Origin: a virus
Direction: 5' to 3' (one strand)
Virus record (IMG/VR): IMGVR_UViG_3300025834_000005
DNA length: 64,000 nucleotides
The position numbers and the translations under genes are program-made. The stretch's first letter is position 1. Each line of letters starts with the position of its first letter. The notes beneath the pieces were generated by a model that saw only the letters and a list, made by a program, of their open reading frames with translations, searched no databases and was not told the origin of the DNA. Of the stretch, positions 3,660-64,000 are shown piece by piece.

Positions 3660-4598
3660 TTATCTTACCTCTTTTATTTCTTTTACCATGAACTTAAACA
3701 CATCATAAATGTTATCGTCATTCTTATCTTTAGTTGTGATTCTCTTTACAAAGCTATGGATTTTATAGCCTATAAGTTTACCATAAGTATCCTTTACAAA
3801 CACTTGATCAATATTTATAAGGTCTTTAACTATTTTAGAGTCATCAGCAAGTTTAATCGAGCCGTATTTAGCTGGTATGAAAAATTCAAGCCTAAGCAAT
3901 TCGCTCCCAATTGTTTTCACATGCATAATCTCTGTCAGCTGTTCAATCTTATTCAATGTTTCGGTTTCCCTGAGACATTTTATAGGGAATTCAAGTTGTT
4001 TGGATAATGTTGGGGCGTCATTTAGGATGAATTTATCAGCTTCAACTTCTGTCATAATATCCACAGATTTTGAGAATCCGATTTCAAACGGAGTATTATT
4101 ATAAATATACTCAATCTGATATTCATCGTCATCTGTTCGTCTATCATTATACTCGCCGTTTATAACCTCTTCAAGGGTTTTGCCTGAATTCTTGTTTTTT
4201 TCATCGAAAAAACCAAAATGTTCATATCTACGACCCCATTTATCCTTTTTACCGAAATTCATACCATGACGGTCAGTTGCCGCTGCAACCTGAAAAGGTG
4301 TGGATTTCTTTCTAAATTCATCGCTTTTCTTTAGAATCTCGTAGTACTCTTTAGTGTATTTCTCGTCCTCAGTACCATTATAGAACGATTCAAGTGTGTT
4401 ATTTCTATGACGATGTCTTTGTATCTTTTTATAACCCTCAGATACAGCGTGATCGATTGGTTTAAAAATTAGCTCATCGGCATAGCTTAATGCCATGCCG
4501 ATTCTAATTGCTATACTGTAAAATATATTTCTAATCCAATTAATCATTTTTTGTTGCGATTTTTTTATAAATCTCGACTCGTTTATTTGTAACGTCAA
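3660..4598 (-). CDS. Hypothetical protein with an N-terminal hydrophobic segment
   Basis: 312-aa ORF. The alternative start at 4547 (MINWIRNIFYSIAIRIG...) would give an ATGATTAA overlap with the upstream glycosyltransferase stop, instead of a 59-nt overlap. Confidence 0.5.
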   Translation of the reverse strand: MTLQINESRFIKKSQQKMINWIRNIFYSIAIRIGMALSYADELIFKPIDHAVSEGYKKIQRHRHRNNTLESFYNGTEDEKYTKEYYEILKKSDEFRKKSTPFQVAAATDRHGMNFGKKDKWGRRYEHFGFFDEKNKNSGKTLEEVINGEYNDRRTDDDEYQIEYIYNNTPFEIGFSKSVDIMTEVEADKFILNDAPTLSKQLEFPIKCLRETETLNKIEQLTEIMHVKTIGSELLRLEFFIPAKYGSIKLADDSKIVKDLINIDQVFVKDTYGKLIGYKIHSFVKRITTKDKNDDNIYDVFKFMVKEIKEVR

Positions 4599-5910
4599 TC
4601 AAATTGAAAGCAGTTTTAAAGTCGTTATGCAGTTGAGTTCCTAACTTCTCTCTAAGGTCTTTATCGAGAATAAGTCTCTTTAAATACTTAGCCCAAAATT
4701 TATTTGAGTTCTTTTGCGATGGAATCAAAATACAATTCTCCATATGTCTGCCATCAACATTATATGTTGGAATATCACTACATACAATTGGTAAACCCCT
4801 TGTCCAACACTCAACCTGTTTAAGATTCGATTTCATTCTGTTAAACAGGTTATCGGCTAATGGTGCTATAACAATATCTGTCTCATTTAACACATTTGCA
4901 TAAACATTAACCTTTTGAGTCCATCTTCTTGCATAATTACCCTCATTAGGATAGGTGTGATTCCTATCATATTTTTTCAAAAATGATAGATATTCCTTAT
5001 CCTTAATAATTCTATTATTATCTGTCAATATTTCCTCATAAAGATAATACGATGATTCTTGAGGTGTGATAGGTCTTTCTGTTTTCACAAAAACATTTTC
5101 AGGATACTTATCCCTTAATTCTTGTGGTAACTCATTAATATCAGAAATATCACCCTTATTAGCATTAATAAGCTTAATAATCTTATTATTATATAATTTA
5201 CGTTCTTGAAGTTCTTTACCGAATTCCTGATTGAATTTAATATCGGTTTGATTGCCATTAATGTCCCAGCCAGCCAAAATGATCTTAAACTTATCCTTTG
5301 TCAAGGAATCAGCATTTAAAATGTTTACCACGCCATTTAATTGAGTTAAATCGCCATGATGTGAAGAGCCACCCATATAAGTTATTCTGATTTTACCATC
5401 AGGGTCGGGTGTCCTGTTATTAACAAATTGATCCATAGATGTTGGGTCAACTGAATTAGGAATCACAAATACATTATCCTTTCCACTTAATTTTCGCAAT
5501 TCGACAGCGAATAATTCAGTTGTCGTTGTGACATAATCAGCATTCTTTACAGCAAGTTCGATATACTGTTGAAGTCTGTTATGTATATAAAAGTCATGCA
5601 AAGGATGTGATTCGGGTAATTGCCAGAAGTCATCAACGTCTAATATAAGTACAGTACCAGCTTCTTTTAAAGCCTTACGGAAACTTGGGTATTTTCTTGG
5701 GTTATATAATTCTTTATGATAATGAATTATATCAAACGACGTAAGATAATCTATAATGTTTGGTTCTTCAAAATTAATATTAGGATTAATTTCTACTATA
5801 AACTCATCACTATGATTTCTATCAACCTCCATTGCTGGGGTCAGGGTTCTATAATAATTAATGCCTGCGACATCGGTATTATAAAACAGTATTTTTAGCT
5901 TTTTTTCCAT
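4540..5910 (-). CDS. Glycosyltransferase, GT-B fold (GT1/GT4-like)
   Basis: 456 aa. The C-terminal nucleotide-sugar binding pattern ...DIVIAPLADNLFNRMKSNLKQVECWTRGLPIVCSD resembles the GT1 E/K..E..a.G.P.v motif. Two Rossmann-like halves. Confidence 0.6.
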   Translation of the reverse strand: MEKKLKILFYNTDVAGINYYRTLTPAMEVDRNHSDEFIVEINPNINFEEPNIIDYLTSFDIIHYHKELYNPRKYPSFRKALKEAGTVLILDVDDFWQLPESHPLHDFYIHNRLQQYIELAVKNADYVTTTTELFAVELRKLSGKDNVFVIPNSVDPTSMDQFVNNRTPDPDGKIRITYMGGSSHHGDLTQLNGVVNILNADSLTKDKFKIILAGWDINGNQTDIKFNQEFGKELQERKLYNNKIIKLINANKGDISDINELPQELRDKYPENVFVKTERPITPQESSYYLYEEILTDNNRIIKDKEYLSFLKKYDRNHTYPNEGNYARRWTQKVNVYANVLNETDIVIAPLADNLFNRMKSNLKQVECWTRGLPIVCSDIPTYNVDGRHMENCILIPSQKNSNKFWAKYLKRLILDKDLREKLGTQLHNDFKTAFNLIDVTNKRVEIYKKIATKND

Positions 5911-5991
5911 AATTAAATAATATTGTATCTTTATTGCAAAGTAACAATATTATTTTGACATAACAAAGCGTTTTCTAAAGAAATATAATAA

Positions 5992-6306
5992 TTATCGTAT
6001 TTTTTTAGTTATTGATGGTTTTTCAACAACCACAGGCTCCACAGGTACTAACTGTTTATAAACAGTACTAACATTTGATAACATTTCAGACCTACTGGCT
6101 TCGGATACAGATATCATATTCTTAGCTCTTAGCTTATGAATTGATATGGGTAATGCGCTTATTTCAATAAATAATGTTTCGCCAGCATTTAATGGTTTAC
6201 TCTGTTTCTCCATGTTATTCACATAATCAATTAATACAAGACTATTAAATCCTTGCTGTCTCTTATCAATTTTATTCGTTGTATTTGTAATTTTATATAT
6301 TCCCAT
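5992..6306 (-). CDS. Hypothetical protein
   Basis: 104-aa ORF in the co-directional gene array. No motif recognised. Confidence 0.45.
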   Translation of the reverse strand: MGIYKITNTTNKIDKRQQGFNSLVLIDYVNNMEKQSKPLNAGETLFIEISALPISIHKLRAKNMISVSEASRSEMLSNVSTVYKQLVPVEPVVVEKPSITKKIR

Positions 6307-6317
6307 AGCTTTTTTTT

Positions 6318-7112
6318 TTAAAATCCTTGTATTAATATTTCACCGTATTTGATTCCATCAAATCCATATTTTTTAGCCTTTTCAGCGATTGCTTTACATT
6401 TCAAATTAAACTCACTAATATTATTCTCTTGTGAAATAGCATTAAAGTTTACATGAGGAAACCATATCCTCGCTAATACATCCACAGGATTCTGACTGCT
6501 TTTATAAGAGACACCCAATTTATCAGTATCTAAAATATTGTCGAACTCAATTTCATATTTTTTCATACCCTCTTTAGGTGATAATGTGAAAAAATTGCCG
6601 TTAGTTGAATTATCCTTAAAATTATCTTTACGATAACCTATAAGTTTAACAACGTTCATCGAATCGCCGTCAATATCAGCCTCCTCAATAGTACCCTCAA
6701 TAGAATCTAAAAAACTATTCGGAACATTGCTATTCTCAGCTTCCTTTTGTTGATCGTAATCATATATATCCTGTATTTTATTTAAAAGTCTACAAGCATT
6801 TTTATGATCAAGGTCTACAAGTACGGCTTTAATAGTTTTCTTACCAGCATATAGCGACTTAACAAGTCTATGATGACCATCGAGAACGAATAATTCATTA
6901 TTAATCCAAATAGGATTTTCATCGTCATCGATATTTGCATCATCAACCTCATGTGAAAAAGTAATACCCTGTAAAGCTTTTAATATTGAAGGATTGATGT
7001 CAATAATTCTACCGTTCACCCCTTCAGCACCAAGTTTATCGATAACGATATCAAATGGAGCATTTACTTGAGGTAAATACGATGGTCTATGTTGCATGTC
7101 TATTGTACTCAT
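6318..7112 (-). CDS. ParB-like nuclease (ParB/Srx N-terminal) domain protein
   Basis: 264 aa. ...LFVLDGHHRLVKSLYAG... contains the DGHHR signature of the ParB/sulfiredoxin fold. It lies directly downstream of the polyvalent protein gene. Confidence 0.6.
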   Translation of the reverse strand: MSTIDMQHRPSYLPQVNAPFDIVIDKLGAEGVNGRIIDINPSILKALQGITFSHEVDDANIDDDENPIWINNELFVLDGHHRLVKSLYAGKKTIKAVLVDLDHKNACRLLNKIQDIYDYDQQKEAENSNVPNSFLDSIEGTIEEADIDGDSMNVVKLIGYRKDNFKDNSTNGNFFTLSPKEGMKKYEIEFDNILDTDKLGVSYKSSQNPVDVLARIWFPHVNFNAISQENNISEFNLKCKAIAEKAKKYGFDGIKYGEILIQGF

Positions 7113-7137: not shown

Positions 7138-10100
7138 TTAAACTGGTACTTCCGTAACACGTCCTATTAGAAATAGAGGTTTACGATAAGGTATCCATTT
7201 TTTCAGATCATTTGACATTTTCGCAGTTGCCCCATTATTATCGTTTACAGCAAGAGTTATATGTCTATTATCATTAATAGACCCGAATCCAGAGACGCCA
7301 ACAGCCATAACATTTTCATCAATGGCATAACTCTCGACCTTTAATCTAAGTGTATATCCTAAATATTTCTCATAAAAACTGTCAATCTCTCCGAAATTAA
7401 TTGTCATATGATCACATATAAGTTCAGTGCCACCAGAGGCATTTGTTCTATATTGATTATAATCATCTGGAATCAAATCAGCGAAAGCGTTGCGTAATTT
7501 ATTGATTGATTTATCATCAAGAACAACGGCTGAATATTTTACAAGCTTTTTCTTACTCATTGGGTTTACGGAACTTAGTTCATTAACAGACTCCTCAACA
7601 AATTTATCGTTGGGTTTTACAAATTTATAAAAATCTGGATAATAATTATATTGAGGATTTCTTTTTTTAAAATTTCTTAAATTAGCTATTAACGAGCCAT
7701 CATTCTCATACTCATCATTCATTATCTCATATTGAGCATCACCTAAGCCAAATCCATTGGTTAGACCGATCCTATGCATCAACGTGTATTTTTTTAAGTT
7801 CTCTGTTGAGTAAATCTCGTTACCGCTTGTAAACAATCCAATATTCTCAGCCATTCTTGAATGCGTAAAATATTTATCCTGTAGAGCAACGTAAATGTTA
7901 CCGCTTGGGTCACCAATTGCTCGAACGTCAGCATCAAAATTAGCCAATGATCGTGGATTCTTATATATCGCAATACGATCACTTTTAGTGTCTAAAACAT
8001 ATGCCATAGGCTTTTCTTCCTGTGTCTGCAAATGTGTTTTATACTCTTTTTCAAATTCATCATCCTGATCAGGAATTCCGAATTTATTTGCAGCATATTT
8101 ATCGCCAACGCCTTCTTGGGTAATCTTGGTATCGTTAATTGGTTTATTATCGCTCTTAATATCTAAAAAATATCTATCATAATACCTAAACTGTGAGTTT
8201 TTTTGAATCAGTTTTTTAAATATCTTCAACATAACTATTCTACGATCACTTTCGTCAGCATTTACATAACTACTGGTTGTATCGCTAAGTCCGAATGTAT
8301 TAGTATTACCAACACGATTAAGAAGTAAAAATCGATCAAGATTATCATAAAAACTATCATCGGTAACAGCAAATTTTAAAGCTACCGCCATTTCGCCATG
8401 AATGAAATTACCATTCTTCTGAGCAACATAAATATTACCATAAACATCAGCAATGGCACGTGTAGATTGATCAAAATTACTTAAAGATTGCGGATTTTTA
8501 TATATCCCCACATTTTCACGTATATTATTTACATTATCATAATTTTTAACATATGCTACAGGTTTTTCAGACATTAGTAGGTTATGAAGCTTATAATCCT
8601 TTTCAAACTCGTCATCAGGGTCTGGGATACCAAATTTCTTTTCAGCGTATTTATCTCCGACGCCCTCTTGTTCAAGAGATTCCTGTAAGTTAAAGTTTTC
8701 GCTTGTAGCGTCAGGAACTTTACTAACCATATTTGTAATAGTAATTATAGCTGGATTATACGCTATAATATGTCTAACGCCACCATATTCCTTATTAATT
8801 AGTTGTCCATCAAAACCCAGCTTTGACATGCCTTGAATAAATAATCTGGGCTGATGTCTAAAAAAATCAACCCATATTTGTTGGTATAAATCCTTCTCGT
8901 TATCAGCGTACTCTGACATCATTGAAATCGCTTTAGCAAGTCCTCTGTTTGGGTTTATATCATAATTCTGAGCATCTTCCTTCCATTGAGGAGACATTTT
9001 AATTAAAGATGACATCATAGAGACCGATACAACCTTCTTATTTGCTGCGTTCGTCATCTTACGAGGTCTTAATACAACAGAATAAATATATTCACCATAC
9101 ATATGAGCCTCTTCTTCGGATTCGGTGAAGTAAATTCCAGGGCCTTCTTGATCGGTTGCATTTTCCTTACCGACAAATTCATCAGTAAACTTATCAAATT
9201 TATGCTTACTACCATGATACATAACATATTCGCCACCTTTTATAGTTTCATTTAAAGGTTCATCAGTACCATCTGGTGTGGGTTTATTATCAGAACTAAT
9301 GTATTTTAAAATATCCTCACGATTATTTTTCAGCTTATCAGTGTATATCTTCAATAAAATTTCCTTAAATTTATTCTTTATTTGTTCACCCCTAAAACCA
9401 AGATTCATAAGATCATTACCGTTTACAGGTAAATCTGCATTTGACTTTGGATACTTACCTGACAATAATTCGTCGCAAGCCATTTTTATAGACTTAGGTA
9501 TTATGTTTGACTTTAAAGACTCTGGATATGTTGCGTACATATTATAAGCAATTGATCTGGCTTTATATATGTTTACAGTATTGCCCTCTGAATCGAATGC
9601 AAACTTCAATGCTTTTATTTCCTTATAGGTGTTTATCTCACCACGCAATTTAGTTTTATAGAATTCATCGGGAGCATCTATAGTGTCGCCAATTAACAGG
9701 TAAATAAATTCGCCCATTGTTTTAGCATTCCTAAATAACTCAGCCTTAGAATTGAAATCAACCATTGGGTTAACTCCGAATAATTGTTTGTATATACCTG
9801 TCTCAACCAAAAGATTTGCACCGATTAAATGATCGCCCTTTTGGACTATTTTATCGAATTCAGTTAATATTCTCTCTGATGGTATTTCTCTTATCTTCGA
9901 AACGCTACCCTGAATAGCTTTCATGGTTTCAGGTTCGATTGTAAAACCAAATCTTGAAGCCATCTGAACAGCACGAAGCATACGCAAAGGGTCTTCGGTA
10001 AAAGCCGAAGGATCGACCATTCGAATAATTTTATTACGAATATCATCAACACCGCCAAAAGGGTCAATAACATTACCCTCAATATCGTTAGCTATCGCAT

Positions 10101-11361
10101 TGATTGTTAGGTCACGTCTACGTAAATCATCCTCAATTGGTAATGCATGATCTGATTTTGTCTCAATGCCCTTATGACCACCAGCACCTGTTGCTGTGTC
10201 GGTTCGTGGTATAGCAACATCAATATCCTCTGTACTACCAGTTGGTTTGAATTTCAGAACTCCAAATGATTTGCCCACAAGGTTTACTTGTCCATATTTA
10301 CCAAGTATCTGTTCAAGAGTGTCCATAGGAACGCCTGTGATCATAATATCAAGGTCTTTAGACTCTTTACCTAAATATTTATCACGCACAGCACCGCCAA
10401 CAGAGTATATCTTTCCGCCGAGCTTATTAATCTCAGCAGTGAAAGGTATTTGATCTAAACTATATATTTCGGCTTCATTCAAACTATTACCACTGGTTAT
10501 ATGCGCTTCCAATTCTTTTTTTAGCTCATCAAAATAAAAATCAATGCTTTCACCATCAAGGTCTGTGAAATTACCGTTAACGTCTCTGGCGATTCCGCCA
10601 TTATCATCCCTTTTAAAATATTTATGAATCCAGCCTTGCTGAGACATCATTCCTAAATGATTAACCTTCTGCTGTATTTCGTCAACATAATCGGATAATA
10701 CCATATTACCATTTCTATAGCCAAATTCACGAATAGCTTTAATATCTTTAGCCATTTCTATTTTAAAAGCAGGTAAATCCCTGTTTTTCACGGCAATCTC
10801 CAAAGGCTCTAACAATTTTAAAACCATTTCACTGAATTCGCTATCGCTTGGGTCTACAGATTCGTCAATCGGATTCTTTTTAAAACGAGACTTAATATAA
10901 TTGTTAATAGATTTATCGGTATAGCCAAGTAATTTACCCACTTCCACAGCCTCTTCTGGTGTTGTATCAGCAGCATAGCCATTATGAGCATTCATGTGAT
11001 CACGAAGCTTTAACGCATTTGCCTTATTAGTATAAATAATAAATGATTTTGTACCGTCCTTTCTAATGATAGGAATCGCATTAATGTTATGCATTGATAA
11101 ATTATTCCTAACATCAGCATCAAGATTATTCATAAGTAATAATCCCACGTCTCGTTTACCGTTTATTAATGTATTTACAGTTCCATCAGCACCGTAAGCC
11201 TCACTTGCATCAATTTCCTCATTAACAATTGAACTAATTTTCAGATTGTTCATATCACCCTGATTACATGCGGCAGATTTACCGTTAAGTTTCCCTAACT
11301 TGCATTTATCTTTAACCTCAACTGTTGAGCTATTTTTCATCCAAGATATAATTCTTTTCAT
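7138..11361 (-). CDS. Multi-domain 'polyvalent' protein: unknown N-terminal region + CCA-adding/poly(A) polymerase nucleotidyltransferase + ART-like domain + duplicated unknown domain + C-terminal 2H phosphoesterase
   Basis: 1407 aa.
- aa ~305-700: GGAVRDKYLGKESKDLDIMI, RRRDLTINAIA and EDPLRMLRAVQMASRF are class II tRNA nucleotidyltransferase / PolyA_pol motifs.
- aa ~710-880: YHGSKHKF...GPGIYFTESEEEAHMYGE, an ART-PolyVal-like H-Y-E pattern.
- aa 898-1081 and 1082-1255: two paralogous copies starting QEGVGDKYA(E/A)(K/N)KFGIPD.DDEFEK.YK.H.
- aa ~1270-1407: two HxT motifs (CDHMTI, NRHITL), consistent with a 2H phosphoesterase. Confidence 0.75.
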   Translation of the reverse strand: MKRIISWMKNSSTVEVKDKCKLGKLNGKSAACNQGDMNNLKISSIVNEEIDASEAYGADGTVNTLINGKRDVGLLLMNNLDADVRNNLSMHNINAIPIIRKDGTKSFIIYTNKANALKLRDHMNAHNGYAADTTPEEAVEVGKLLGYTDKSINNYIKSRFKKNPIDESVDPSDSEFSEMVLKLLEPLEIAVKNRDLPAFKIEMAKDIKAIREFGYRNGNMVLSDYVDEIQQKVNHLGMMSQQGWIHKYFKRDDNGGIARDVNGNFTDLDGESIDFYFDELKKELEAHITSGNSLNEAEIYSLDQIPFTAEINKLGGKIYSVGGAVRDKYLGKESKDLDIMITGVPMDTLEQILGKYGQVNLVGKSFGVLKFKPTGSTEDIDVAIPRTDTATGAGGHKGIETKSDHALPIEDDLRRRDLTINAIANDIEGNVIDPFGGVDDIRNKIIRMVDPSAFTEDPLRMLRAVQMASRFGFTIEPETMKAIQGSVSKIREIPSERILTEFDKIVQKGDHLIGANLLVETGIYKQLFGVNPMVDFNSKAELFRNAKTMGEFIYLLIGDTIDAPDEFYKTKLRGEINTYKEIKALKFAFDSEGNTVNIYKARSIAYNMYATYPESLKSNIIPKSIKMACDELLSGKYPKSNADLPVNGNDLMNLGFRGEQIKNKFKEILLKIYTDKLKNNREDILKYISSDNKPTPDGTDEPLNETIKGGEYVMYHGSKHKFDKFTDEFVGKENATDQEGPGIYFTESEEEAHMYGEYIYSVVLRPRKMTNAANKKVVSVSMMSSLIKMSPQWKEDAQNYDINPNRGLAKAISMMSEYADNEKDLYQQIWVDFFRHQPRLFIQGMSKLGFDGQLINKEYGGVRHIIAYNPAIITITNMVSKVPDATSENFNLQESLEQEGVGDKYAEKKFGIPDPDDEFEKDYKLHNLLMSEKPVAYVKNYDNVNNIRENVGIYKNPQSLSNFDQSTRAIADVYGNIYVAQKNGNFIHGEMAVALKFAVTDDSFYDNLDRFLLLNRVGNTNTFGLSDTTSSYVNADESDRRIVMLKIFKKLIQKNSQFRYYDRYFLDIKSDNKPINDTKITQEGVGDKYAANKFGIPDQDDEFEKEYKTHLQTQEEKPMAYVLDTKSDRIAIYKNPRSLANFDADVRAIGDPSGNIYVALQDKYFTHSRMAENIGLFTSGNEIYSTENLKKYTLMHRIGLTNGFGLGDAQYEIMNDEYENDGSLIANLRNFKKRNPQYNYYPDFYKFVKPNDKFVEESVNELSSVNPMSKKKLVKYSAVVLDDKSINKLRNAFADLIPDDYNQYRTNASGGTELICDHMTINFGEIDSFYEKYLGYTLRLKVESYAIDENVMAVGVSGFGSINDNRHITLAVNDNNGATAKMSNDLKKWIPYRKPLFLIGRVTEVPV
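7597..8670 (-). repeat. Intragenic duplication of a ~180-aa domain of unknown function in the polyvalent protein
   Basis: aa 898-1081 versus 1082-1255. Shared blocks in the same order:
- QEGVGDKYA.(K/N)KFGIPD.DDEFEK.YK.H
- IYKNP.SL.NFD...RAI.D..GNIYVA
- (N/H)R(V/I)G.TN.FGL.D
- (S/P)Q(F/Y).YY. Confidence 0.85.
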
Positions 11362-11379: not shown

Positions 11380-12015
11380 TTATTTTAATTCTGCCGCAGC
11401 TTTTGCCTTTGCCTTCTGATTTGTTTGAATTTCCTGAATAATATCGATTACCATTCTACGAAGAACCTCACGACTATCGACCAAGCCTTGTTTAATTCTC
11501 TCAGCACTATACATTTCAAGTAAAGTCGAGTTTACAGTATTTTCCATTATTGCACCTAAATTAACTGTAAGGTATTCATTTACAAGTTGTTCAATATTAC
11601 CAGAATTAGTCGGGTTATTCTGAATTTTCGACTTAATCTCTGGCGATGCAAACTCGCTAATACTTTCAGCTAAAGTCCTATTTTTCTTGCCAAAGGATTC
11701 AAATAACTGTTCATCCCTATCAGCAGTTGTATTGTTATTTGGTCTCCTGACAGGAGACTGGATATTATCAGGAGTCTCTGTTAATATTTTTTTATATTCA
11801 TTTTTCAATGTGTCAGGGTCTTTTTTCTCAGCCAGTAATTCAATTACCTTTGTGGCGTGAGACGGACGACCAGTTTCACGTGATTTCAAAAGACCATTAA
11901 GGAAAAAATCCTTAGCTGTACCCTTTTCAGTCATACCCATTTCAGTATTTCTGGCTACTTGTCTTTCGTCAATTTCTTTTCGCAAACCGTTTAAATCAAT
12001 GTTGCTTTTTGTCAT
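11380..12015 (-). CDS. Hypothetical protein
   Basis: 211-aa ORF in the co-directional array. Lys/Ala-rich C-terminal tail. No motif recognised. Confidence 0.5.
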   Translation of the reverse strand: MTKSNIDLNGLRKEIDERQVARNTEMGMTEKGTAKDFFLNGLLKSRETGRPSHATKVIELLAEKKDPDTLKNEYKKILTETPDNIQSPVRRPNNNTTADRDEQLFESFGKKNRTLAESISEFASPEIKSKIQNNPTNSGNIEQLVNEYLTVNLGAIMENTVNSTLLEMYSAERIKQGLVDSREVLRRMVIDIIQEIQTNQKAKAKAAAELK

Positions 12016-12048
12016 AAAATATTTAATTTAATTTAAGCTATCATCAAT

Positions 12049-12909
12049 TTATTTAGATTTGAGACTATCGAAATATTTGACAGCTTTGTTATGTATATCG
12101 TTACGAAAGGTTTTATTATTTATTACTTTCGGCACATTTAATTTCAGATAGAGGTCGTTAAGATTACCTATAATGGATTCTTTAGGAACTCTTGTATCAT
12201 TCGCATTTCGCAAAGATACACCTTTTTTATCAGATACTACTATAAAATTCCTCGCTGGCTTATGTTTTACTTTGGTAACCACATTAAAAAAGTCTTTAAT
12301 ATCATTTGGGGTGGCTTCCTTTCGAATCATATCCAATGGCTCTTCAGCACCTTGAACAGGTTTAATAGGCTCGATCTTAGTAATTTCGCTGCCATTATCT
12401 GTTTCAGTATCCTCAATATCATTGCCATTACCTACATTTACAGATGCCATTATTCCGCCTGTCATTTGCTTATCGTCAGCATTATATTTATTAGGAATAT
12501 CCTCTGGAGCAACACTAAAATGTTTACCAGTGGGTAAAGCGGATGTTATATATTCCAGCTTAAACAATCTCCATGCAGGCTTACTGCTTGTCTTATTAGT
12601 CTCCCTGTTTGTATGATTCTGGTATTCATGATCAATTCTACGATTAGGGTCTCCAAAAGAGTCACTTGAACCGCTTTCTTGCCACGCCCTTACAGCGAGA
12701 CTACCATCGGACAATGTACCTAAAACGAAAGGTTTGATAATACGATACCCTTTCATCGCTGTATCAGGCGACGCATAGTAAATGTATAAGTACTTATTAT
12801 TCTCAATAGCTTCGAGAAAAATATTTGCACTCACACCCTCATTCAGCATGCCTCTAAAAGTCTGAATGTTTTCAAAAAGTATATTTAATTCATTTAATAC
12901 CATATACAT
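12049..12909 (-). CDS. Hypothetical protein
   Basis: 286-aa ORF. No catalytic motif recognised. Confidence 0.5.
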   Translation of the reverse strand: MYMVLNELNILFENIQTFRGMLNEGVSANIFLEAIENNKYLYIYYASPDTAMKGYRIIKPFVLGTLSDGSLAVRAWQESGSSDSFGDPNRRIDHEYQNHTNRETNKTSSKPAWRLFKLEYITSALPTGKHFSVAPEDIPNKYNADDKQMTGGIMASVNVGNGNDIEDTETDNGSEITKIEPIKPVQGAEEPLDMIRKEATPNDIKDFFNVVTKVKHKPARNFIVVSDKKGVSLRNANDTRVPKESIIGNLNDLYLKLNVPKVINNKTFRNDIHNKAVKYFDSLKSK

Positions 12910-13151
12910 TACGCATTTGATGAATTATATTCACCAGTGCCAGAACTATATTTATTTTTAGCTAATGCACCCTTTCTTTTATCGATATCGGTTTTACTTC
13001 CGATTGATTTATTAAGTTCACCTTTACCGTGATCGTCGCCGTCAGATAATGCACGTGAATTAGTTTGATCATATTCTTTAGACTTTGAGAATGTGCTAAA
13101 TTTTAAATTTGCTTCTCTAAATTCTTTGCTAATTTCTTCTAATCTGCTCAT
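12909..13151 (-). CDS. Hypothetical small hydrophilic protein
   Basis: 80 aa, low-complexity and Lys/Ser/Gly-rich. Tightly packed with its neighbours. Confidence 0.4.
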   Translation of the reverse strand: MSRLEEISKEFREANLKFSTFSKSKEYDQTNSRALSDGDDHGKGELNKSIGSKTDIDKRKGALAKNKYSSGTGEYNSSNA

Positions 13152-13169
13152 AATTAATATTTTATTTGT

Positions 13170-13871
13170 TTATTTATAATTTGTAAAACATATTGATATA
13201 TACTCAATTAAATTTGGAACAGTCTCCATTTTTTGTATCTCTTGCATTGTATACCATCCATATGCTGTATGTTCGCCATTTAATTTAACATCCGAATCAT
13301 CGCCATTAAAACGATCAGCGAATATATGCTCGACATTTAACACATCGTCATATGTTCTTTCAATTGTTAATCTTTTTATAATATTGTCAAGTTTAATTCC
13401 AGTTTCCTCATAAACCTCACGTTTACATGCATCCTCTGGTGATTCATCATCCTCTATTTTACCGCCAGCCAAACCATATTTACCAGCAGCCCAACAGTTC
13501 TCGCCTCTTTTTAAAAGCAGAAATTTATTATCCTTATTGGCGATAACACCGAGTGCATTCTCCTGTTTGTTTAAGTTTTCAGATTCATTTAAAGCACCTA
13601 TATTAATCTTTCTTGCTGAATTTAGACTATTATCAACATATTTTTGCATGTCAACGCCACCAGCTAATAAATATTGAACATCATTAGCACCCATTCCAGC
13701 CATATCATGTTTGAGCCTTTTTAATGCTTGGTATGTTAATGTCCTATTTTTTAGAATATACTTAGCCCTACGAATCCCATCGCTGTCAGGATATCTTGTA
13801 ATCGCAGCACTGATGATATTTAAAACATCTTTAGGTACTACGAAATTTTTGCCGTATAGTTCACTATTCAT
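13170..13871 (-). CDS. Nudix hydrolase with a ~110-aa N-terminal extension
   Basis: GGKIEDDESPEDACKREVYEETGI is a perfect Nudix box (GX5EX7REUXEEXGU). The N-terminal ~110 aa are of unknown function. Confidence 0.85.
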   Translation of the reverse strand: MNSELYGKNFVVPKDVLNIISAAITRYPDSDGIRRAKYILKNRTLTYQALKRLKHDMAGMGANDVQYLLAGGVDMQKYVDNSLNSARKINIGALNESENLNKQENALGVIANKDNKFLLLKRGENCWAAGKYGLAGGKIEDDESPEDACKREVYEETGIKLDNIIKRLTIERTYDDVLNVEHIFADRFNGDDSDVKLNGEHTAYGWYTMQEIQKMETVPNLIEYISICFTNYK

Positions 13872-14464
13872 TTAGCCTCTATTAAGTTTTTTAGTTTATC
13901 TTTTGATTTGTTATCTAATCTATTAATCAGTCCAGCTAATTTTGAAACGCTTTTGTCTGACATATCATGATCATTAGTCTTTGCTGATAGAAAATTTTCA
14001 GGTTTTTTTTCGATAATAATATCCTCGTCAACAACTGATTCGTCAACACTCTTTGGCTTACTTTCGAATTTTTTTACAATCTCTTTAGCATACACCTCAA
14101 AATATTTTACAACATCCTTGGAGATCGTTTCCTTTTCAGTATAAATTCTATAGTCATTTTTCAGATTATTTGGATTTTTATAGTAGTATTTCATGATTTC
14201 TTCATAGAATTTACGAAGAATATCTAAAGTATCTGTCAAGTCTTTATTCTTCTCGTCAGAACCCTCGCCCTCAAAGAATGGTAGCATGACAGAACCAAAA
14301 TATCCCATCATGCTATCACCAAACGGCTGATGTCCCACAGCCATATTATAATCTGTAATTTTTTTCGATACAGTGCTCATATTAGAACCTGTTTTTGGCG
14401 TGTTATCGTTGCCTATCAGACTCCCATCGCTATCTATAACCTCATTTATAAGACTAACTTTCAT
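13868..14464 (-). CDS. Hypothetical protein (first gene after a GTATTTATAT motif)
   Basis: 198-aa ORF. The motif at 14482-14491 lies 17 nt upstream of the ATG. There is a 4-nt overlap with the Nudix gene. Confidence 0.5.
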   Translation of the reverse strand: MKVSLINEVIDSDGSLIGNDNTPKTGSNMSTVSKKITDYNMAVGHQPFGDSMMGYFGSVMLPFFEGEGSDEKNKDLTDTLDILRKFYEEIMKYYYKNPNNLKNDYRIYTEKETISKDVVKYFEVYAKEIVKKFESKPKSVDESVVDEDIIIEKKPENFLSAKTNDHDMSDKSVSKLAGLINRLDNKSKDKLKNLIEAK

Positions 14465-14481
14465 GATTATTAAGTAATTTA

Positions 14482-14491
14482 ATATAAATAC
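14482..14491 (-). promoter_or_regulatory. Phage-specific (late-type) promoter motif GTATTTATAT
   Basis: Exact 10-mer, 17 nt upstream of the ATG at 14464. It heads the accessory operon that contains the Nudix and polyvalent genes. Confidence 0.55.
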
Positions 14492-20118: not shown

Positions 20119-20508
20119 TTAAATCACAGTTGTCTTTGTGATGGAATCAAAAACAGTAATTTTAATAACACCGCTATTCGGAATAGATATTTTCATAGGA
20201 AAATCCACGTTTAAAAAATCTAATTTAAACTCTCCGATAAAATTTCCTGTTTTAGCTGTATCATCCAAAGTAAAATTATACTCAATCGAATACTTTGGAA
20301 CAGCCAGATAATCATTATCATTTCGAAATTTAATACAGCCACTAACATTTGCTATTGCAAATTCATCAGTATCCTCATCATACATTGAGAATGTGACAGC
20401 TGCATTATTTATGTCATCATCAGAAATGCCATATTTATCTAAAAATTCCTGATCTACGGCGTACTTTAAGGTCGGAAGAGTACTATCCTTTTTTATAAAA
20501 AAATTCAT
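20119..20508 (-). CDS. Hypothetical beta-rich protein, BppU_N/Ig-like pattern (probable virion protein)
   Basis: I place the start at M10 of the track ORF (MNFFIKKD..., ATG at 20508), because the GTATTTATAT motif (20524-20533) lies inside the longer ORF. The pattern ...AAVTFSMYDEDTDEFAIANVSG...TGNFIGEFKLDF resembles phage BppU N-terminal Ig-like domains. Confidence 0.45.
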   Translation of the reverse strand: MNFFIKKDSTLPTLKYAVDQEFLDKYGISDDDINNAAVTFSMYDEDTDEFAIANVSGCIKFRNDNDYLAVPKYSIEYNFTLDDTAKTGNFIGEFKLDFLNVDFPMKISIPNSGVIKITVFDSITKTTVI

Positions 20509-20523
20509 AATATAAGTTCTTTT

Positions 20524-20533
20524 ATATAAATAC
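20524..20533 (-). promoter_or_regulatory. Phage-specific (late-type) promoter motif GTATTTATAT
   Basis: Exact 10-mer, 15 nt upstream of the ATG at 20508. Confidence 0.55.
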
Positions 20534-20538
20534 AAACA

Positions 20539-22424: not shown

Positions 22425-22973
22425 TTAAATTGAGGCGTATTCCATTGCCTCGAAATTTTCCGAAATAAATACCATATCACATTTTTTTATATGATTGTAA
22501 ATTTCGTTTGTGACCGTTTTAACAGCATCTACGATATCAGTAGAATACCTACAGGTCGGGTTAAAACCATTAACATAAAATGTTCTTTCTACAATTGTTT
22601 TACCGTTTACATAAAAACCGATAGAACATGGCACACCTTTAATAGTTTTACCTTCAATCTGATAGGTTACTATAGAAGGATCATAGATAAGATCATTACG
22701 AATATCATCCTCATAAGAGTCAATTATGTCATTAGCATAATTGAAAAGATCATAATGTTTTTCTTCGCCAGTATATGCAAAAGTTTCATAATATCTTTTC
22801 GATAAAGCTTTTTGGAAAAGACCAATAGCTTTAGGTAGAATGTGACGAATGTTAATCGGATATCTAACCTCTGGTGAAAAGTCCGAAGCATCAATCATTT
22901 TTTCGCAAAGTAATATGTCACCCTGAAAAAGTGAAAACTTAAAAATCTTACTAAACTCGTTATCGTTACTCAT
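22425..22973 (-). CDS. Hypothetical early protein (monocistronic unit)
   Basis: 182-aa ORF bracketed by a host-type promoter box (23002-23009) and a hairpin plus T-run terminator (22354-22394). Confidence 0.5.
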   Translation of the reverse strand: MSNDNEFSKIFKFSLFQGDILLCEKMIDASDFSPEVRYPINIRHILPKAIGLFQKALSKRYYETFAYTGEEKHYDLFNYANDIIDSYEDDIRNDLIYDPSIVTYQIEGKTIKGVPCSIGFYVNGKTIVERTFYVNGFNPTCRYSTDIVDAVKTVTNEIYNHIKKCDMVFISENFEAMEYASI

Positions 22974-23038: not shown

Positions 23039-24091
23039 TTACTTTTTTCTTTGAGAATTTGTATAATTAGTTAAAAGTTGCTTCTCAAACATAACAACTG
23101 TATAAAAAGGCTCAAGATAATTAACAAAATTTCCGCCTGTGAATATCGTTAAAAAACCATCTTCTATCATCAACTTATACAGGTTCTTACTACCTCTATT
23201 AACAGGTGATAAGGGCATATCTAATTGAGCCAACTCTTCCTTTGCTTGATCGTTTAGAAATGGCTCAGATAGATTCGTAAGCAAATAATTAAGTTTAAGT
23301 CTATCAATGTTATTCAACAGATTCTCAAATATTTTTAAAGGCTTCTGCTTATTGATGATACGTTCTTCGTTAATCACTTTAGCACGTTGGCATATCTCAC
23401 GAACCGTTAATTTTCTGAATTTAATATCTGGAAAATGTTTTATTAATGCACCTTCTTTAATCCCTGCAATCCCTTGAATATTATCGGCAACATCGCCACC
23501 AATGATTTTCATAATCAAGCCATTAGAATAATGGTAATCAAAATCATAATGAAAATTAAGTTTAGTTGTCGGGTGAGGTAGATTCCCGAAAATGATAGTT
23601 ATATTATACTCAAGCAATTGGACAAAATCCCTATCATTTGTGAATAAGAATATTATCTCTTTTTTCGAGTTATACATACAATATGCTGCAATTAAATCAT
23701 CAGCCTCAATTTCATCAACCTCAATTTGACGTATAAATAGTTCCTCAATGTATTGTTGAATACGCTTTTTATTTTTTAAGATTGATTCGTCCTTAGCTTG
23801 TTCTCGTTTTATTTCAGCATCAGTTAACTCTATTTTTGTGTGCCACGATTTATCCTTACGATTAGCCTTATAAGCTCTATCGAGTCTATAACGATCAATA
23901 CCGCCGTTTTCACCGTCCCAACATACAACAACTTTATTTATCTGATGTTCTTTTATTAGCTTTCGAATTGTTGTTAGAAAACCATATAAACCACCAATTG
24001 ATCCAAAAGACGCTGTGTAAGCGTCTTTTGCACCAAAGTATGATCTTTTTAGAAGATAATTACCATCAACCAATAAAGTTCTAATTTCCAT
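23039..24091 (-). CDS. 5'-3' exonuclease / flap endonuclease (RNase H-like, FEN family)
   Basis: LLVDGNYLLKRSYFG, VVVCWDGENGGIDRYRLDRAYKANRK, EADDLIAAY and NDRDFVQLL match the 53EXO/PIN-like motifs of the phage T4 rnh / T5 D15 family. Confidence 0.85.
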   Translation of the reverse strand: MEIRTLLVDGNYLLKRSYFGAKDAYTASFGSIGGLYGFLTTIRKLIKEHQINKVVVCWDGENGGIDRYRLDRAYKANRKDKSWHTKIELTDAEIKREQAKDESILKNKKRIQQYIEELFIRQIEVDEIEADDLIAAYCMYNSKKEIIFLFTNDRDFVQLLEYNITIIFGNLPHPTTKLNFHYDFDYHYSNGLIMKIIGGDVADNIQGIAGIKEGALIKHFPDIKFRKLTVREICQRAKVINEERIINKQKPLKIFENLLNNIDRLKLNYLLTNLSEPFLNDQAKEELAQLDMPLSPVNRGSKNLYKLMIEDGFLTIFTGGNFVNYLEPFYTVVMFEKQLLTNYTNSQRKK

Positions 24092-25179
24092 TAATCCTCT
24101 GTTGATATATCGTTAATCTCTTTTGATTCGAATGTGATATCGTCAGCTGTCATTGAATCGTCATTAAAGATATTCCTGAAATATAGAATATTTTTCTTCT
24201 TATACGCTTCAACGCCATCCTTGTAGATAAATCCATGAGGGGTTGAAATTACTTTCCCTTCCATAGAAATGCCACCCAAATCTCCGTCGACGTGATTTTT
24301 TGCAACGTTTACTCTCGCCTCAATACCATAATGGATTGTACGACCCTTGCTAATCGCTGAAATCTTACTTGTTCCGTGAGCAGCGATACCACCGAAGTGA
24401 TAAATAAGCCTTGAACCGAAATAAAATGTTTCTCCGCCTTTATGTTTAACGCCTCCGCCATTCATATTATCAATCCAAATTTTCTGGATAGCGATAACAG
24501 TGTTTGTGAATTCTTTATCAACCTTCCTACTATTTGGAATAGTATTGTTCAAGAAAGATAAGAAACTCTTTTCATAAGCATTAGCATTCCACATATTATT
24601 CTGTGAAGTTTCTTTAACCTGTGCATTAATCGTAGCATTACAGTTAAGCGTTCCGATTGAGTCGATAGCAAATACTATGTTACGTGGTAACAAGCCAGCT
24701 TCCTGATCATCAACGAATGAATACATACATTTAGCTAAGTCTTCAATTGAAGCCTCTCTACGGTCTTTATCTTGTTTCTTACCAAAGTTTTCAAGTAAAT
24801 ATTCATTATCAATTAAGATAAATTCGCCATCTAAGTCAAAACCCATTTTTGCGAGTCTTTCCATACCCATGTTATTCTCAGTATCGATAATAATTACCAA
24901 ATCACCGTCTTTTTGGGCTGAAACAATACCTTCGCATAATGCTGTAGACTTGCCTGTATTCGAAAATCCCCTACAAAGATTAACATAACCTTTCGCAAAT
25001 CCTGGCAATCCTGTCGCAGTTTCTAAGGCTGCTGACGATTTAATCCAGTATAAAGGCTTATCTGGAACATCTTCACATCCCTTTTTCTTTTTGAAATCAT
25101 TCAGCGAAAAATCTTTTTTTGCCGTAGGTTTTCTCACCGCTATATTAGGCGGTACTACATTTGCATCCTTCTCTTTCAT
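24091..25179 (-). CDS. RecA/UvsX-like recombinase (RecA-superfamily ATPase)
   Basis: GYVNLCRGFSNTGKSTALCEGIVSAQKDGDLVIIIDTENNMGMERLAKMGFD parallels the RecA Walker A region through the ...fiDaE... segment. Walker B is VFAIDSIG. Confidence 0.7.
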   Translation of the reverse strand: MKEKDANVVPPNIAVRKPTAKKDFSLNDFKKKKGCEDVPDKPLYWIKSSAALETATGLPGFAKGYVNLCRGFSNTGKSTALCEGIVSAQKDGDLVIIIDTENNMGMERLAKMGFDLDGEFILIDNEYLLENFGKKQDKDRREASIEDLAKCMYSFVDDQEAGLLPRNIVFAIDSIGTLNCNATINAQVKETSQNNMWNANAYEKSFLSFLNNTIPNSRKVDKEFTNTVIAIQKIWIDNMNGGGVKHKGGETFYFGSRLIYHFGGIAAHGTSKISAISKGRTIHYGIEARVNVAKNHVDGDLGGISMEGKVISTPHGFIYKDGVEAYKKKNILYFRNIFNDDSMTADDITFESKEINDISTED

Positions 25180-30391: not shown

Positions 30392-31894
30392 TTAAACAAC
30401 ATTGAAAAACTCGCCCAATATAAGTTTATTTTCGTTATAAAAAGGAACGAGGGTATTATAATAATCCTTATTCAAATTTTTTAATTTATTCTCGTTTTTA
30501 TTTCGTGATACAGACTCAAGATGATATGCCACAGAATCGCATGCTGTTATATTTTTCAAGCCACTTATTAAGCATTTAAAGTTTAGTTCAACATCCTCAA
30601 AACATTCAATATAGTTTTCATTAAATTGTCCGAGAAAATTAAAAAGCTTTTTATTTATCATTAAAAACGCACCTGTATTACCAATCGATCTATAATTTAC
30701 ATGTGTTGAGTAATCATTTGTTTTATTCAAATCAACATGGGTGAGTCCTATATTGCCATTTTTATCTAATCTGGCATCGATTCCACAATGCTGGACAGAG
30801 CCATTTTCATAATGAAGTCTGATTCCAATAGTGCCTATAGCTCTACAATCTTCAAGATAAATTTGAACGCATCGACTTAATGCATCATTAAGCAGTTCAA
30901 TATCGTCATTACAAAATACAATAAGTTCTGTATCTTCTGATACATGATTCGTAACAACATCGTTATTAATCTTTGCAAAATTATAATAGTCGTATTTTAT
31001 AACACTAACATTATTAGTAATAAAATTGGTGTATTTATCGATTATTTCCTGATCACTACCTGTGTCAGCAATAATGATATTATAATTAAGGTAAAGAACA
31101 TTAAATTGCCATGACAATATATTATTTTTTAAGATTTCATAATTATTTTTTGTTGGTATAATTACGGTTACTTTAGGGTCTGTGTCTTTAGGTTTTATAT
31201 TTAAATCATCATACGATGGAGTAATTGACAAAGGTAGATCATCACCATATAACTTCACGAACTTCATTCTATTCTCGTCCCATTTAGGACTTGTCTGTCC
31301 CACAGATTTGTGAAGTATTCGTATTGTGGTAATAACGCCTATTTCAACATCGTTTAAATAGTTATCCAAACTGAATGAAATATCATAAAAATGAAACCCA
31401 TCAAATGTCTCGTTAAATCCTACGGTTTTGGATGGATCAACAGCCATAAAAACGCCATCAACTATAACAACATCCTGAATATTTTTAATAGGTGGTGAGA
31501 AATTACTAACCCATGTGTTAATTTCATCCGTATGTTCAACAATACCGAACATCGTATGTTTATCTTCCCACCATATACCAGACTTGGGCATTGACGTTGT
31601 TCCAGCTAAGCCTATAATACCGTAACCAGTGGTATTAAATTTAGCAAGCAATATTCGACCCCAATTGAGTGTCTTAAAAACAATGTCATTATGAATGAAG
31701 CATAAAATAGCATCTTTTGAGTTCGTCTCATCTAAAGCCCTATTATATAGTGACGTTAGTGAAAACTCATTAAAATTAGGAAAACATAATATTTCATGCT
31801 TTGAGCCTATCGTATTTTTAATATGCTGATCAAATGATCTATTAGTTGCATCATCATAATGCGATGAATATACCACAATAATTTTAGTCTTCAT
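30392..31894 (-). CDS. Glycosyltransferase family 2 (GT-A), two-domain
   Basis: 500 aa. The C-terminal half has KVTVIIPTKNNYEIL, ADTGSDQ and FCNDDIEL (DxD), which are classic GT2 motifs. The N-terminal half (KIIVVYSSHYDD..., VDGVFMAV) looks like a second GT-A-like domain. Confidence 0.7.
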   Translation of the reverse strand: MKTKIIVVYSSHYDDATNRSFDQHIKNTIGSKHEILCFPNFNEFSLTSLYNRALDETNSKDAILCFIHNDIVFKTLNWGRILLAKFNTTGYGIIGLAGTTSMPKSGIWWEDKHTMFGIVEHTDEINTWVSNFSPPIKNIQDVVIVDGVFMAVDPSKTVGFNETFDGFHFYDISFSLDNYLNDVEIGVITTIRILHKSVGQTSPKWDENRMKFVKLYGDDLPLSITPSYDDLNIKPKDTDPKVTVIIPTKNNYEILKNNILSWQFNVLYLNYNIIIADTGSDQEIIDKYTNFITNNVSVIKYDYYNFAKINNDVVTNHVSEDTELIVFCNDDIELLNDALSRCVQIYLEDCRAIGTIGIRLHYENGSVQHCGIDARLDKNGNIGLTHVDLNKTNDYSTHVNYRSIGNTGAFLMINKKLFNFLGQFNENYIECFEDVELNFKCLISGLKNITACDSVAYHLESVSRNKNENKLKNLNKDYYNTLVPFYNENKLILGEFFNVV

Positions 31895-63895: not shown

Positions 63896-64000
63896 ACTTA
63901 GTCCTTTGAAGAGACTTAATCATAGTATTGATGATTTGAATAGCTCATTTAAACTTTATTGTATAAAAAAATATCCAGAAGACGAATTTCTACAGTCTAT
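63876..64000 (+). CDS. Hypothetical protein (partial; continues beyond the window)
   Basis: Hand translation from ATG 63876 gives MVVQENKLSPLKRLNHSIDDLNSSFKLYCIKKYPEDEFLQS..., open to the window end. Overlaps the dut stop by 20 nt. Confidence 0.3.
   Translation, partial: MVVQENKLSPLKRLNHSIDDLNSSFKLYCIKKYPEDEFLQS

Follow-up and report, generated by a model that had tools for sequence, protein, structure and literature searches.

Phage enzymes that add the CCA tail of transfer RNA (tRNA), the polyvalent proteins that carry several effectors on one polypeptide, and the 2H domains that heal RNA ends are all known already. We analysed a gene in which they meet, on a 64,000-nucleotide stretch of the IMG/VR virus record IMGVR_UViG_3300025834_000005 (hereafter the window, always at its full length), which comes from an uncultured phage of about 328 kb. 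The gene (positions 7138–11361, minus strand) encodes a protein of 1407 amino acids that carries a class II CCA-adding nucleotidyltransferase (NTase). What appears to be new is a syntenic family of hub-and-module proteins with the CCA enzyme at its centre, together with an NleE-like domain, a domain for which our searches gave no structural match and conserved junctions between the modules. From the comparisons below, we give a probability of about 0.55 to the reading that the core of the protein is a heal-and-rebuild unit for tRNA 3' ends, which would counter damage to these ends and be accompanied by accessory effector modules.

A functional precedent may be provided, by analogy, by the "multifunctional CCA addition/repair protein" of E. 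coli. E. coli-type Cca (a class II NTase with an HD phosphohydrolase, NCBIfam NF008137) and the window protein both fuse a CCA enzyme to a phosphoesterase, and the heads of their NTases match (8.8e-41). The HD domain of Cca is said, after work by Yakunin et al. in 2004, to have both 2',3'-cyclic phosphodiesterase and phosphatase activities. In the window protein, the healing domain is a 2H and not an HD domain, the body and tail of the NTase are closer to the Bacillus type (NF009814), and the whole is a viral polypeptide of three times the length, endowed with ADP-ribosyltransferase (ART), NleE-like and unknown modules. The 2H domain shares its fold and its two HxT motifs with the CPD of fungal Trl1 and vertebrate CNPase, which are its best matches in Pfam and Foldseek, but the identity is only 10–14% and its 145 residues are joined to a nucleotidyltransferase rather than to a kinase and a ligase. 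The stand-alone CCA-adding enzymes of jumbo phages belong to the same enzyme family, and a role in the restoration of tRNA 3' ends was proposed for them (Iyer et al. 2021, PMC7824862). They are single-domain proteins of roughly 250–450 amino acids, whereas here the enzyme is the hub of a modular protein of 800–2700 amino acids.

Polyvalent proteins (Iyer et al. 2017, PMC5512222) share with this family the multi-effector polypeptide, the ART-PolyVal domain with its H-Y-D residues, a 2H domain and a variable composition, and GNAT and ArdC-N domains occur in or near our relatives. They carry two to fifteen conflict-type domains, and we count seven modules in the window protein. In contrast, the linkage to MuF, portal or relaxase genes, on which the prediction of their packaging was based, is absent here, and the core and its order are fixed. 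An earlier reading of the window, made from its letters alone (the sequence-only reading), had called the protein polyvalent; the many conflict-type domains on one polypeptide agree with that name, but we saw no MuF or portal link among the neighbours of the gene and of its relatives. The text of PMC5512222 contains "CCA" zero times, and our literature search found no description of the architecture or of a link between CCA enzymes and polyvalent proteins. It did not cover Burroughs and Aravind 2016, on RNA repair systems, which may mention related CCA-2H or CCA-HAD proteins.

Domains of the modular CCA-enzyme protein

The protein is 100% identical to P0001, encoded on a contig of 328,453 bp. 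The start given by the gene caller for P0001 results in 1400 instead of 1407 amino acids, but the alignment of homologues begins at residue 2, which makes the shorter version less likely. The parts of the protein are the following, with boundaries that agree to about 10 residues with those of the sequence-only reading.

7138–11361, minus strand: whole open reading frame (ORF) of the modular CCA-enzyme protein, ATG start, 1407 amino acids and stop codon
11218–11358, minus strand: N1a, a near-invariant motif of 45 amino acids (residues 2–48)
10852–11217, minus strand: NleE-like domain, putative S-adenosylmethionine (SAM)-dependent methyltransferase (residues 49–170)
10471–10851, minus strand: segment unique to this protein (residues 171–297), ending in the junction L294-N-E296
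9262–10446, minus strand: class II tRNA nucleotidyltransferase of the CCA-adding type, with head, neck, body and tail (residues 306–700)
8707–9246, minus strand: ART-PolyVal ADP-ribosyltransferase domain (residues 706–885)
8119–8706, minus strand: DupA, first copy of an uncharacterised alpha/beta domain (residues 886–1081)
7576–8118, minus strand: DupB, second copy (residues 1082–1262)
7141–7575, minus strand: 2H phosphoesterase of the CPD/CNPase type (residues 1263–1407)

All the NTase motifs listed by the sequence-only reading are present where it had placed them (GGAVRD 322–327, DLD 336–338, RRRDLTINA 414–422 and EDPLRMLRA 456–464). In the PDB, the Bacillus CCA-adding enzyme 1miv is the best solved relative (9e-28), and motifs A to E align with it residue for residue: the catalytic carboxylates D336 and D338, motif B (R414RRD417), motif C (D433PFGG), motif D (E456DPLR460) and motif E (E496R). 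That reading had named missing DxD carboxylates as grounds for giving up its claim, and D336-L-D338 is intact and aligned with motif A of 1miv. Pfam identifies the head (PolyA_pol, 318–447, 5.5e-24), the neck (PolyA_pol_RNAbd, 472–528, 2.7e-14) and, weakly, the tRNA-NTase tail (tRNA_NucTran2_2, 639–687), and PHROGs classes the middle segment as a tRNA nucleotidyltransferase (4.5e-63). In NCBIfam, the sole full-length match is the CCA tRNA nucleotidyltransferase NF009814 (2e-49, 381 positions, 14–394 of 396), at 168.7 bits and under the equivalog cutoff of 290; the poly(A) polymerase models rank below it and span only head and neck. The comparison of sequences confirms an intact class II CCA-adding nucleotidyltransferase, with CCA addition as its predicted activity.

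The sequence-only reading had proposed a C-terminal 2H phosphoesterase from two HxT motifs, and both the motifs and the fold were upheld, including against its own proviso that the fold might prove not to be 2H. The motifs (H1318-M-T1320 in DHMTI 1317–1321 and H1367-I-T1369 in RHITL 1366–1370) are invariant in 25 of 25 aligned relatives. Pfam tRNA_lig_CPD stays under its cutoff of 23 bits on the query alone (20.5 bits, E 0.006), and is matched by 24 of 25 relatives (best 1.1e-7) and by stand-alone 2H relatives at 23.4–24.2 bits. An AlphaFold model built on the family alignment has a predicted local distance difference test (pLDDT) score of 87.9, and its top Foldseek matches are all CNPase catalytic domains (probability 1.0, template modelling [TM] score 0.60–0.71), with LigT next. 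The model thus confirms a predicted 2H fold, of the CPD/CNPase rather than the Acb1 type.

The ART domain claimed from the YHGS (715–718) and GIYFT (742–746) motifs is borne out by Pfam ART-PolyVal (PF18760), which matches residues 709–871 with 33.9 bits, above the gathering cutoff of 31.2, and phrog_25279 matches the domain as well (1.2e-21). Its H-Y-D triad (H716, Y744, D851) is near-invariant in the 19 family copies, with D851 put on strand 5 by position only; Iyer et al. 2017 (PMC5512222) described this configuration in the ART domains that polyvalent proteins carry. The domain might conceivably modify a component of a defence system. We also considered that it acts like Tpt1/KptA to remove a 2'-phosphate, because 2H and KptA are a known pair, and gave this little weight since the domain falls in the H-Y-D ART-PolyVal clade and not in KptA.

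The two copies of the Dup domain, DupA and DupB, are 42.7% identical over 185 amino acids (E 5e-46), in line with the two paralogous domains of about 180 amino acids, devoid of known motifs, that had been seen in the translation. Invariant positions of the family alignment (A2) are N-P, R, G, H and R. The domain had no Pfam match in 27 members and no sequence match in the PDB. Its AlphaFold model (pLDDT 88.9) gave, with Foldseek, best hits of E 0.69 and TM 0.16 among PDB folds and of E 0.023 and TM 0.24 in BFVD. On these sequence and fold searches, we rejected the idea that Dup is a known fold, such as an ART, a 2H or a phosphatase, in divergent form. An exhaustive profile search recovered 811 clusters at 50% identity, and many of these proteins stand alone (170–210 amino acids) or have up to six copies in tandem; all of the single-domain examples that we looked up were metagenomic. 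In one locus (L044:5977–7161), stand-alone Dup genes adjoin a stand-alone LigT-type 2H gene, outside CCA proteins, and in another (L047:1–7184) a tandem Dup pair shares a 12-kb locus with an NleE-like ORF. Because of these two arrangements, Dup appears to keep the same module company even when it is not fused. On a 159-kb IMG/VR viral contig (L013), a predicted tmRNA gene (4803–5165) lies about 800 nt upstream of a stand-alone Dup gene (5968–6492).

The first 300 residues, left blank by the sequence-only reading, hold the N1a motif and the NleE-like domain. N1a has the family consensus ERxxSxMxGSxxVxVKKKCRLGGLGNTSxACNQGDINNLxxKxIxE, with two conserved cysteines (C20 and C32), and lies at the extreme N-terminus here and internally in most relatives. 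The profile of the NleE-like domain (A1) matches NleE itself (PDB 4r29, E 8.6e-4), and 14 of 34 relatives match Pfam NleE on their own sequence (best 1.1e-5). We call the domain NleE-like rather than a member of NleE because the query alone stays under threshold (Pfam 15.1 bits for a cutoff of 27; NCBIfam 17.7 for a cutoff of 75). It aligns to residues 85–219 of NleE, and G68-K69-R70, E137 and Y155 fall on R107, E191 and Y212, the SAM-binding residues of NleE (PMC4239114); the position of R70 is R or K in relatives and E137 is invariant. Compared with the NleE/OspZ type III effector cysteine methyltransferases, the domain keeps these three residues but lacks the N-terminal 84, and its context is a phage instead of a secreted bacterial effector. 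For the segment that follows (residues 171–297), we found no homologue except in P0001.

A syntenic family with a fixed core and conserved junctions

The protein search resulted in more than 360 metagenomic relatives, at 800–2400 amino acids and on contigs of up to 357 kb; the family as a whole spans 800–2700 amino acids and comes from myophages of 220–360 kb. We mapped the modules on the best 120 of them, which carry them in these numbers.

NTase: 120 of 120 relatives
N1a motif of 45 amino acids: 113
any 2H: 87
NleE-like: 82
CPD-type 2H: 63
Dup domain: 60
LigT/Acb1-type 2H: 39
GNAT: 29
ART: 19
HAD_SAK_1: 4
NUDIX: 2

The NTase, 45–62% identical to the query, is thus the constant and highly conserved part, and each relative has 2 to 10 recognised modules. 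The order of the domains is fixed. All 116 copies of N1a are N-terminal to the NTase, all 202 copies of N1a and NleE taken together precede it, and 101 of 102 copies of the 2H follow it. The exact order of modules of the window protein is found, among the 120, only in the identical P0001. The sequence-only reading had regarded the combination as undescribed; we found no description either, but in this large family the architecture is a single permutation out of dozens, and what is conserved is the core and not the combination. On three of the relatives with a LigT/Acb1-type 2H, Pfam Acb1 scores 25–27 bits, at or just under its cutoff of 27.

Fusions and fissions occur around the same core. There are minimal proteins made of NTase and 2H (541 and 826 amino acids), and a split-gene IMG/VR locus encodes, one after the other, an N1a protein, an NTase-Dup protein, a CPD-type 2H of 127 amino acids and a HAD_SAK_1 phosphatase. 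A second split-gene arrangement in IMG/VR consists of an N1a-NleE protein with three Dup copies, the NTase-2H protein of 541 amino acids and HAD_SAK_1. A HAD_SAK_1 gene follows in about twenty IMG/VR loci; Pfam describes this family as "HAD domain ... in Swiss Army Knife RNA repair proteins". The NUDIX domain is fused to the N-terminus in two relatives (P0009 and P0017).

The neighbourhood of the gene is conserved as well. The syntenic order is SNF2 helicase, PolB, and proteins of about 200 amino acids, NUDIX, about 80, about 300 and about 220 amino acids, then the CCA-enzyme gene, a variable slot, a protein of about 460 amino acids and, further on, the gp25 baseplate wedge. This order is kept in four distant relatives, and the gene occupies one position in at least five distant contigs of 220–360 kb. 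The variable slot holds ArdC-N or HAD_SAK_1 in relatives.

Every type of module starts just after a conserved hydrophobic-x-Glu tripeptide, mostly L/I/V-N-E. The window protein has exactly four hydrophobic-N-E tripeptides (at 46, 294, 703 and 1259), and all four are at junctions.

11218–11226, minus strand: V46-N-E48, between N1a and the NleE-like domain; Glu in 100% of 77 junctions
10474–10482, minus strand: L294-N-E296, before the NTase; Glu in 97% and a hydrophobic residue at −2 in 98% of 116 junctions
9247–9255, minus strand: L703-N-E705, between NTase and ART; Glu in 95% and a hydrophobic residue at −2 in 100% of 19 junctions
7579–7587, minus strand: V1259-N-E1261, between DupB and the 2H; Glu in 92% and a hydrophobic residue at −2 in 95% of 63 junctions

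In the six unrelated module types measured (NleE-like, NTase, ART, Dup, CPD-type 2H and GNAT), the Glu is 92–100% conserved, and in five of the six the hydrophobic residue is 68–100% conserved. For the sixth, the NleE-like junction, gaps in the alignment prevent an automated count, and by eye the listed sequences all have L, I, V or M. The N1a module shows the same pattern, also by eye. The interiors of the domains have only 2 such conserved triplets in 1282 columns. Stand-alone Dup proteins have leaders of 5–25 amino acids that end in hydrophobic-x-E before GVGDKY and resemble the capsid-targeting propeptides of T4, and the stand-alone 2H and NTase proteins are devoid of junction leaders. A second conserved linker, EDLEYNHVxGDATxDEYxL, precedes N1a or ART in many relatives (P0010–P0031 and others) and is not in the window.

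Tripeptides of this kind also occur among the head genes of the same phage. A T4-type head module lies on the same contig, about 7–10 kb past window position 64000.

L059:17241–20480: gp23-family major capsid gene (548 amino acids), an acidic protein of 442 amino acids in the position of a scaffold, and a Peptidase_S77 (gp21-family) gene

The Peptidase_S77 gene (contig ERZ27245488 k141_1156773, about 172 kb) adjoins the gp23-type capsid gene and is cut by the end of the locus. The scaffold-position protein has 5 hydrophobic-N-E tripeptides for 0.84 expected (P 0.0018), and in the propeptide of the capsid protein, I58-N-E60 comes a short way ahead of the conserved IRRV core. Inside the window, phmmer searches for head genes with cyanophage gp13–gp23 found the sheath only, and PDB searches with two large unknown ORFs gave no match. 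Two genes in the same run as the CCA-enzyme gene encode early tripeptides (12049–12909, minus strand, LNE at 5 and 22; 13868–14464, minus strand, INE at 6). As they fall in the first 25 residues, these could be short cleavable leaders, but such proteins are 4 of 56 in the window, which is not above chance.

Proposed repair of tRNA ends, possible capsid delivery and competing explanations

In the heal-and-rebuild reading, the 2H cyclic phosphodiesterase would open the 2',3'-cyclic phosphate left on a tRNA trimmed by a metal-independent RNase, the HAD_SAK_1 phosphatase, fused or adjoining in many relatives, would remove the remaining phosphate, and the class II CCA-adding enzyme would rebuild the CCA tail on the healed 3'-OH. 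The variable modules would probably act on other host molecules: here ART, the NleE-like domain and the two Dup copies; elsewhere GNAT, NUDIX and LigT/Acb1-type 2H. We favour this reading because NTase and 2H are constantly paired and ordered, because minimal NTase-2H proteins exist, and because an RNA-repair HAD phosphatase recurs. The sequence-only reading had put forward a similar logic, with a 2H that opens the cyclic phosphate and an NTase that rebuilds CCA. The C-terminal position of the 2H, the NTase-2H fusions and HAD_SAK_1 give it comparative support, whereas we infer that tRNA is the substrate, in which order the reactions run, that they act against defence nucleases, and every accessory activity. 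Bacterial defences that cut tRNA are a fast-growing topic and those that cut the CCA tail exist, as in the case of the RuvC nuclease Cas12a3, for which the authors call a viral counter unknown (PMC12851939). This family is a testable candidate for the viral answer to such attacks, and some of its parts are worth study in themselves: the Dup fold, an NleE-like domain outside bacterial pathogens and the 45-residue motif.

Several observations weigh against this reading. The CPD/CNPase-type 2H enzymes leave a 2'-phosphate, as established for the CPD of Trl1 and for CNPase. Because of this, and because two hidden Markov models found no HAD_SAK phosphatase in the 64-kb window, the healing pathway would be incomplete here unless another module or gene supplies the phosphatase. 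There are no tRNA genes near the gene or its relatives, and no RNA ligase nearby. Metal-dependent nucleases of the RuvC type, such as Cas12a3, should leave no cyclic phosphate, so a 2H would not be needed against it. The discriminator base is lost to Cas12a3 as well, and a CCA enzyme does not put this base back. Since stand-alone NTase and 2H genes lack a leader, the repair enzymes need not be packaged. Finally, some relatives have an Acb1-like 2H domain, and Iyer et al. 2017 (PMC5512222) considered the 2H of polyvalent proteins more likely to be RNases or degraders of signalling nucleotides.

The same enzymes could have a housekeeping job, which we regard as unlikely: an intact cytoplasmic enzyme would keep up the CCA ends of phage and host tRNAs during a long infection, with no link to defence, and the junctions would be linkers or recombination features for shuffling. 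It would fit with the stand-alone CCA-adding enzymes, a common feature of jumbo phages that is interpreted as maintenance of tRNAs (PMC7824862), with the match of the NTase to 506 phage records, with the position of the gene just downstream of a replication module, with a promoter-like motif (see below) that also heads SNF2-PolB, and with the split relatives, which encode NTase, 2H and HAD as ordinary small genes with no leaders. Yet it leaves unexplained the constant ART, GNAT, NleE-like and multi-copy unknown domains and a rapid shuffling of the conflict type; ArdC-N, known from anti-restriction proteins, adjoins the gene in one relative, and a Glu conserved at 92–100% across unrelated modules would be abnormal for linkers. 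Less probable still is a cocktail of independent counter-defence activities, in which the 2H would degrade immune signalling nucleotides (2'-5' or cyclic oligonucleotides, as Acb1-like enzymes do) and the NTase would be functionally unrelated. The role predicted for polyvalent-protein 2H domains (Iyer et al. 2017, PMC5512222) and the second 2H, of LigT/Acb1 type, in 39 of the 120 relatives speak for it, but the window 2H is of the tRNA-ligase CPD/CNPase and not of the Acb1 type, and both its fixed position after the NTase and the association with HAD_SAK_1 argue for a coupling at RNA ends.

We consider it very improbable that the NTase is instead a poly(A) polymerase or another tailing enzyme, which would mark host RNAs for decay or modify their 3' ends. 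Head-domain motifs cannot safely separate class II CCA enzymes from bacterial poly(A) polymerases, and PcnB models (1.2e-37) and PDB poly(A) polymerases match the protein too. However, PcnB covers only head and neck, whereas the best and sole full-length match is to a CCA tRNA nucleotidyltransferase, through body and tail, and the nucleotide-template motif D (EDxxR) is intact.

The junctions raise the additional question of delivery. The T4 prohead protease has the specificity L/I-x-E. Prohead proteases of T4 and giant phages cut after Glu in short x-x-E motifs (PMC5694885). Because the junctions resemble the Glu-specific sites of a T4-type prohead protease encoded by the same phage, a cleavage of the protein into its single enzymes within the capsid, followed by injection, is conceivable; we put this forward tentatively and at somewhat less than even odds. 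Such processing would back the packaged effector of the sequence-only reading, by a route that this reading had not taken into account. In the fuller and slightly more doubtful version of this scenario, N1a would target the polyprotein to the prohead, the S77 protease would cut each junction, and the virion would inject a kit of enzymes (CCA-adding enzyme, 2H cyclic phosphodiesterase, ADP-ribosyltransferase, NleE-like methyltransferase and proteins of the new fold) that would repair tRNA tails and disarm defences before phage genes are expressed. T4 Alt and the internal proteins, which are processed by gp21 and injected, also have a short hydrophobic-x-Glu element before a variable payload, and this phage has a gp21-family protease; here, in contrast, the motif sits between many modules of one giant protein and is known from sequence alone. 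If the scenario is true, the shuffling of modules between relatives would be the phage equivalent of the swapping of internal-protein cassettes in T4, and if it is confirmed, the hydrophobic-N-E junctions would show how giant phages load and process their enzyme cargo.

Gene neighbourhood and other elements of the window

Sheath, tube and baseplate genes mark the phage as a myovirus. Among 50,697 phage records searched with megablast and tblastn, there was no close deposited phage: only the NTase segment matched, with zero matches for the N-terminal 172 amino acids and for the Dup and 2H segment, and the full architecture is absent from all INPHARED phages. The neighbours of the gene upstream include PolB, SNF2 and NUDIX, and those downstream are glycosyltransferase-like and baseplate genes.

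11380–14464, minus strand: five upstream genes in the same co-directional run, encoding 198 amino acids, NUDIX (233 amino acids), 80, 286 and 211 amino acids
13170–13871, minus strand: the NUDIX hydrolase gene of this run, whose position upstream of the CCA-enzyme gene is kept in relatives
14482–14491, minus strand: promoter-like motif GTATTTATAT, 17 nt ahead of the opening gene in a run of six, the last of which is the CCA-enzyme ORF

The order and sizes of the five genes are kept in relatives. Only NUDIX belongs to a recognisable family and the other four do not. We rejected the idea that these ORFs are detached N-terminal parts of longer relatives, as only the NUDIX gene has a fused counterpart. 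In one relative locus (L005:39–2882), the SNF2 helicase has 947 amino acids instead of the usual 600 or so, with a weak match to LAGLIDADG_3, which suggests an intein or the insertion of a homing endonuclease.

The motif GTATTTATAT has 12 exact copies in the window for 1.09 expected (2172, 14482, 20524, 26981, 29724, 35270, 42671, 45226, 50640 on the plus strand, 54378, 57256 and 62331). Ten or eleven copies are in sense and 12–33 nt away from the start codons that follow them, so that leaders would be very short, and the motif is likely a phage-specific promoter. The sequence-only reading had called the copy at 14482 a late-type motif. The motif is real, but this qualifier is unjustified and we rejected a late promoter, because GTATTTATAT precedes not only the sheath, tube and gp25 genes but also the replication operon that encodes the 129-amino-acid protein, SNF2 and PolB. 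The listed TTG start of the gene at 20119–20535 (minus strand) overlaps a copy of GTATTTATAT; translation probably begins 16 nt past the motif instead, with the ATG at 20508, and gives a product of 129 amino acids. A perfect hairpin of 14–15 bp followed by a T run (2189–2221), just upstream of the GTATTTATAT of the gp25 gene, has the look of an intrinsic terminator that separates two operons and acts in both directions.

Upstream of four other genes (2244–2708, 4540–5910, 22425–22973 and 30392–31894) lie sequences, TATACTTTTGTA and TTACTTTGCAAT among them, that resemble what we take to be the −7 box of Bacteroidota, TAnnTTTG. Together with weak SprB and Fib_succ_major matches among the neighbours of relatives (L001 and L006), these boxes hint at a host in Bacteroidota or Fibrobacterota and at a second class of promoters. 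Many large ORFs of the window (999, 835, 734, 553 and 500 amino acids) match no family. The other recognisable genes include an exonuclease, a UvsX-like recombinase, a PhoH-like ATPase and a weak dUTPase (23039–25179, minus strand; 46432–47220, plus strand; 63416–63895, plus strand), and just beyond the window are genes for thymidylate synthase and a UvrD helicase.

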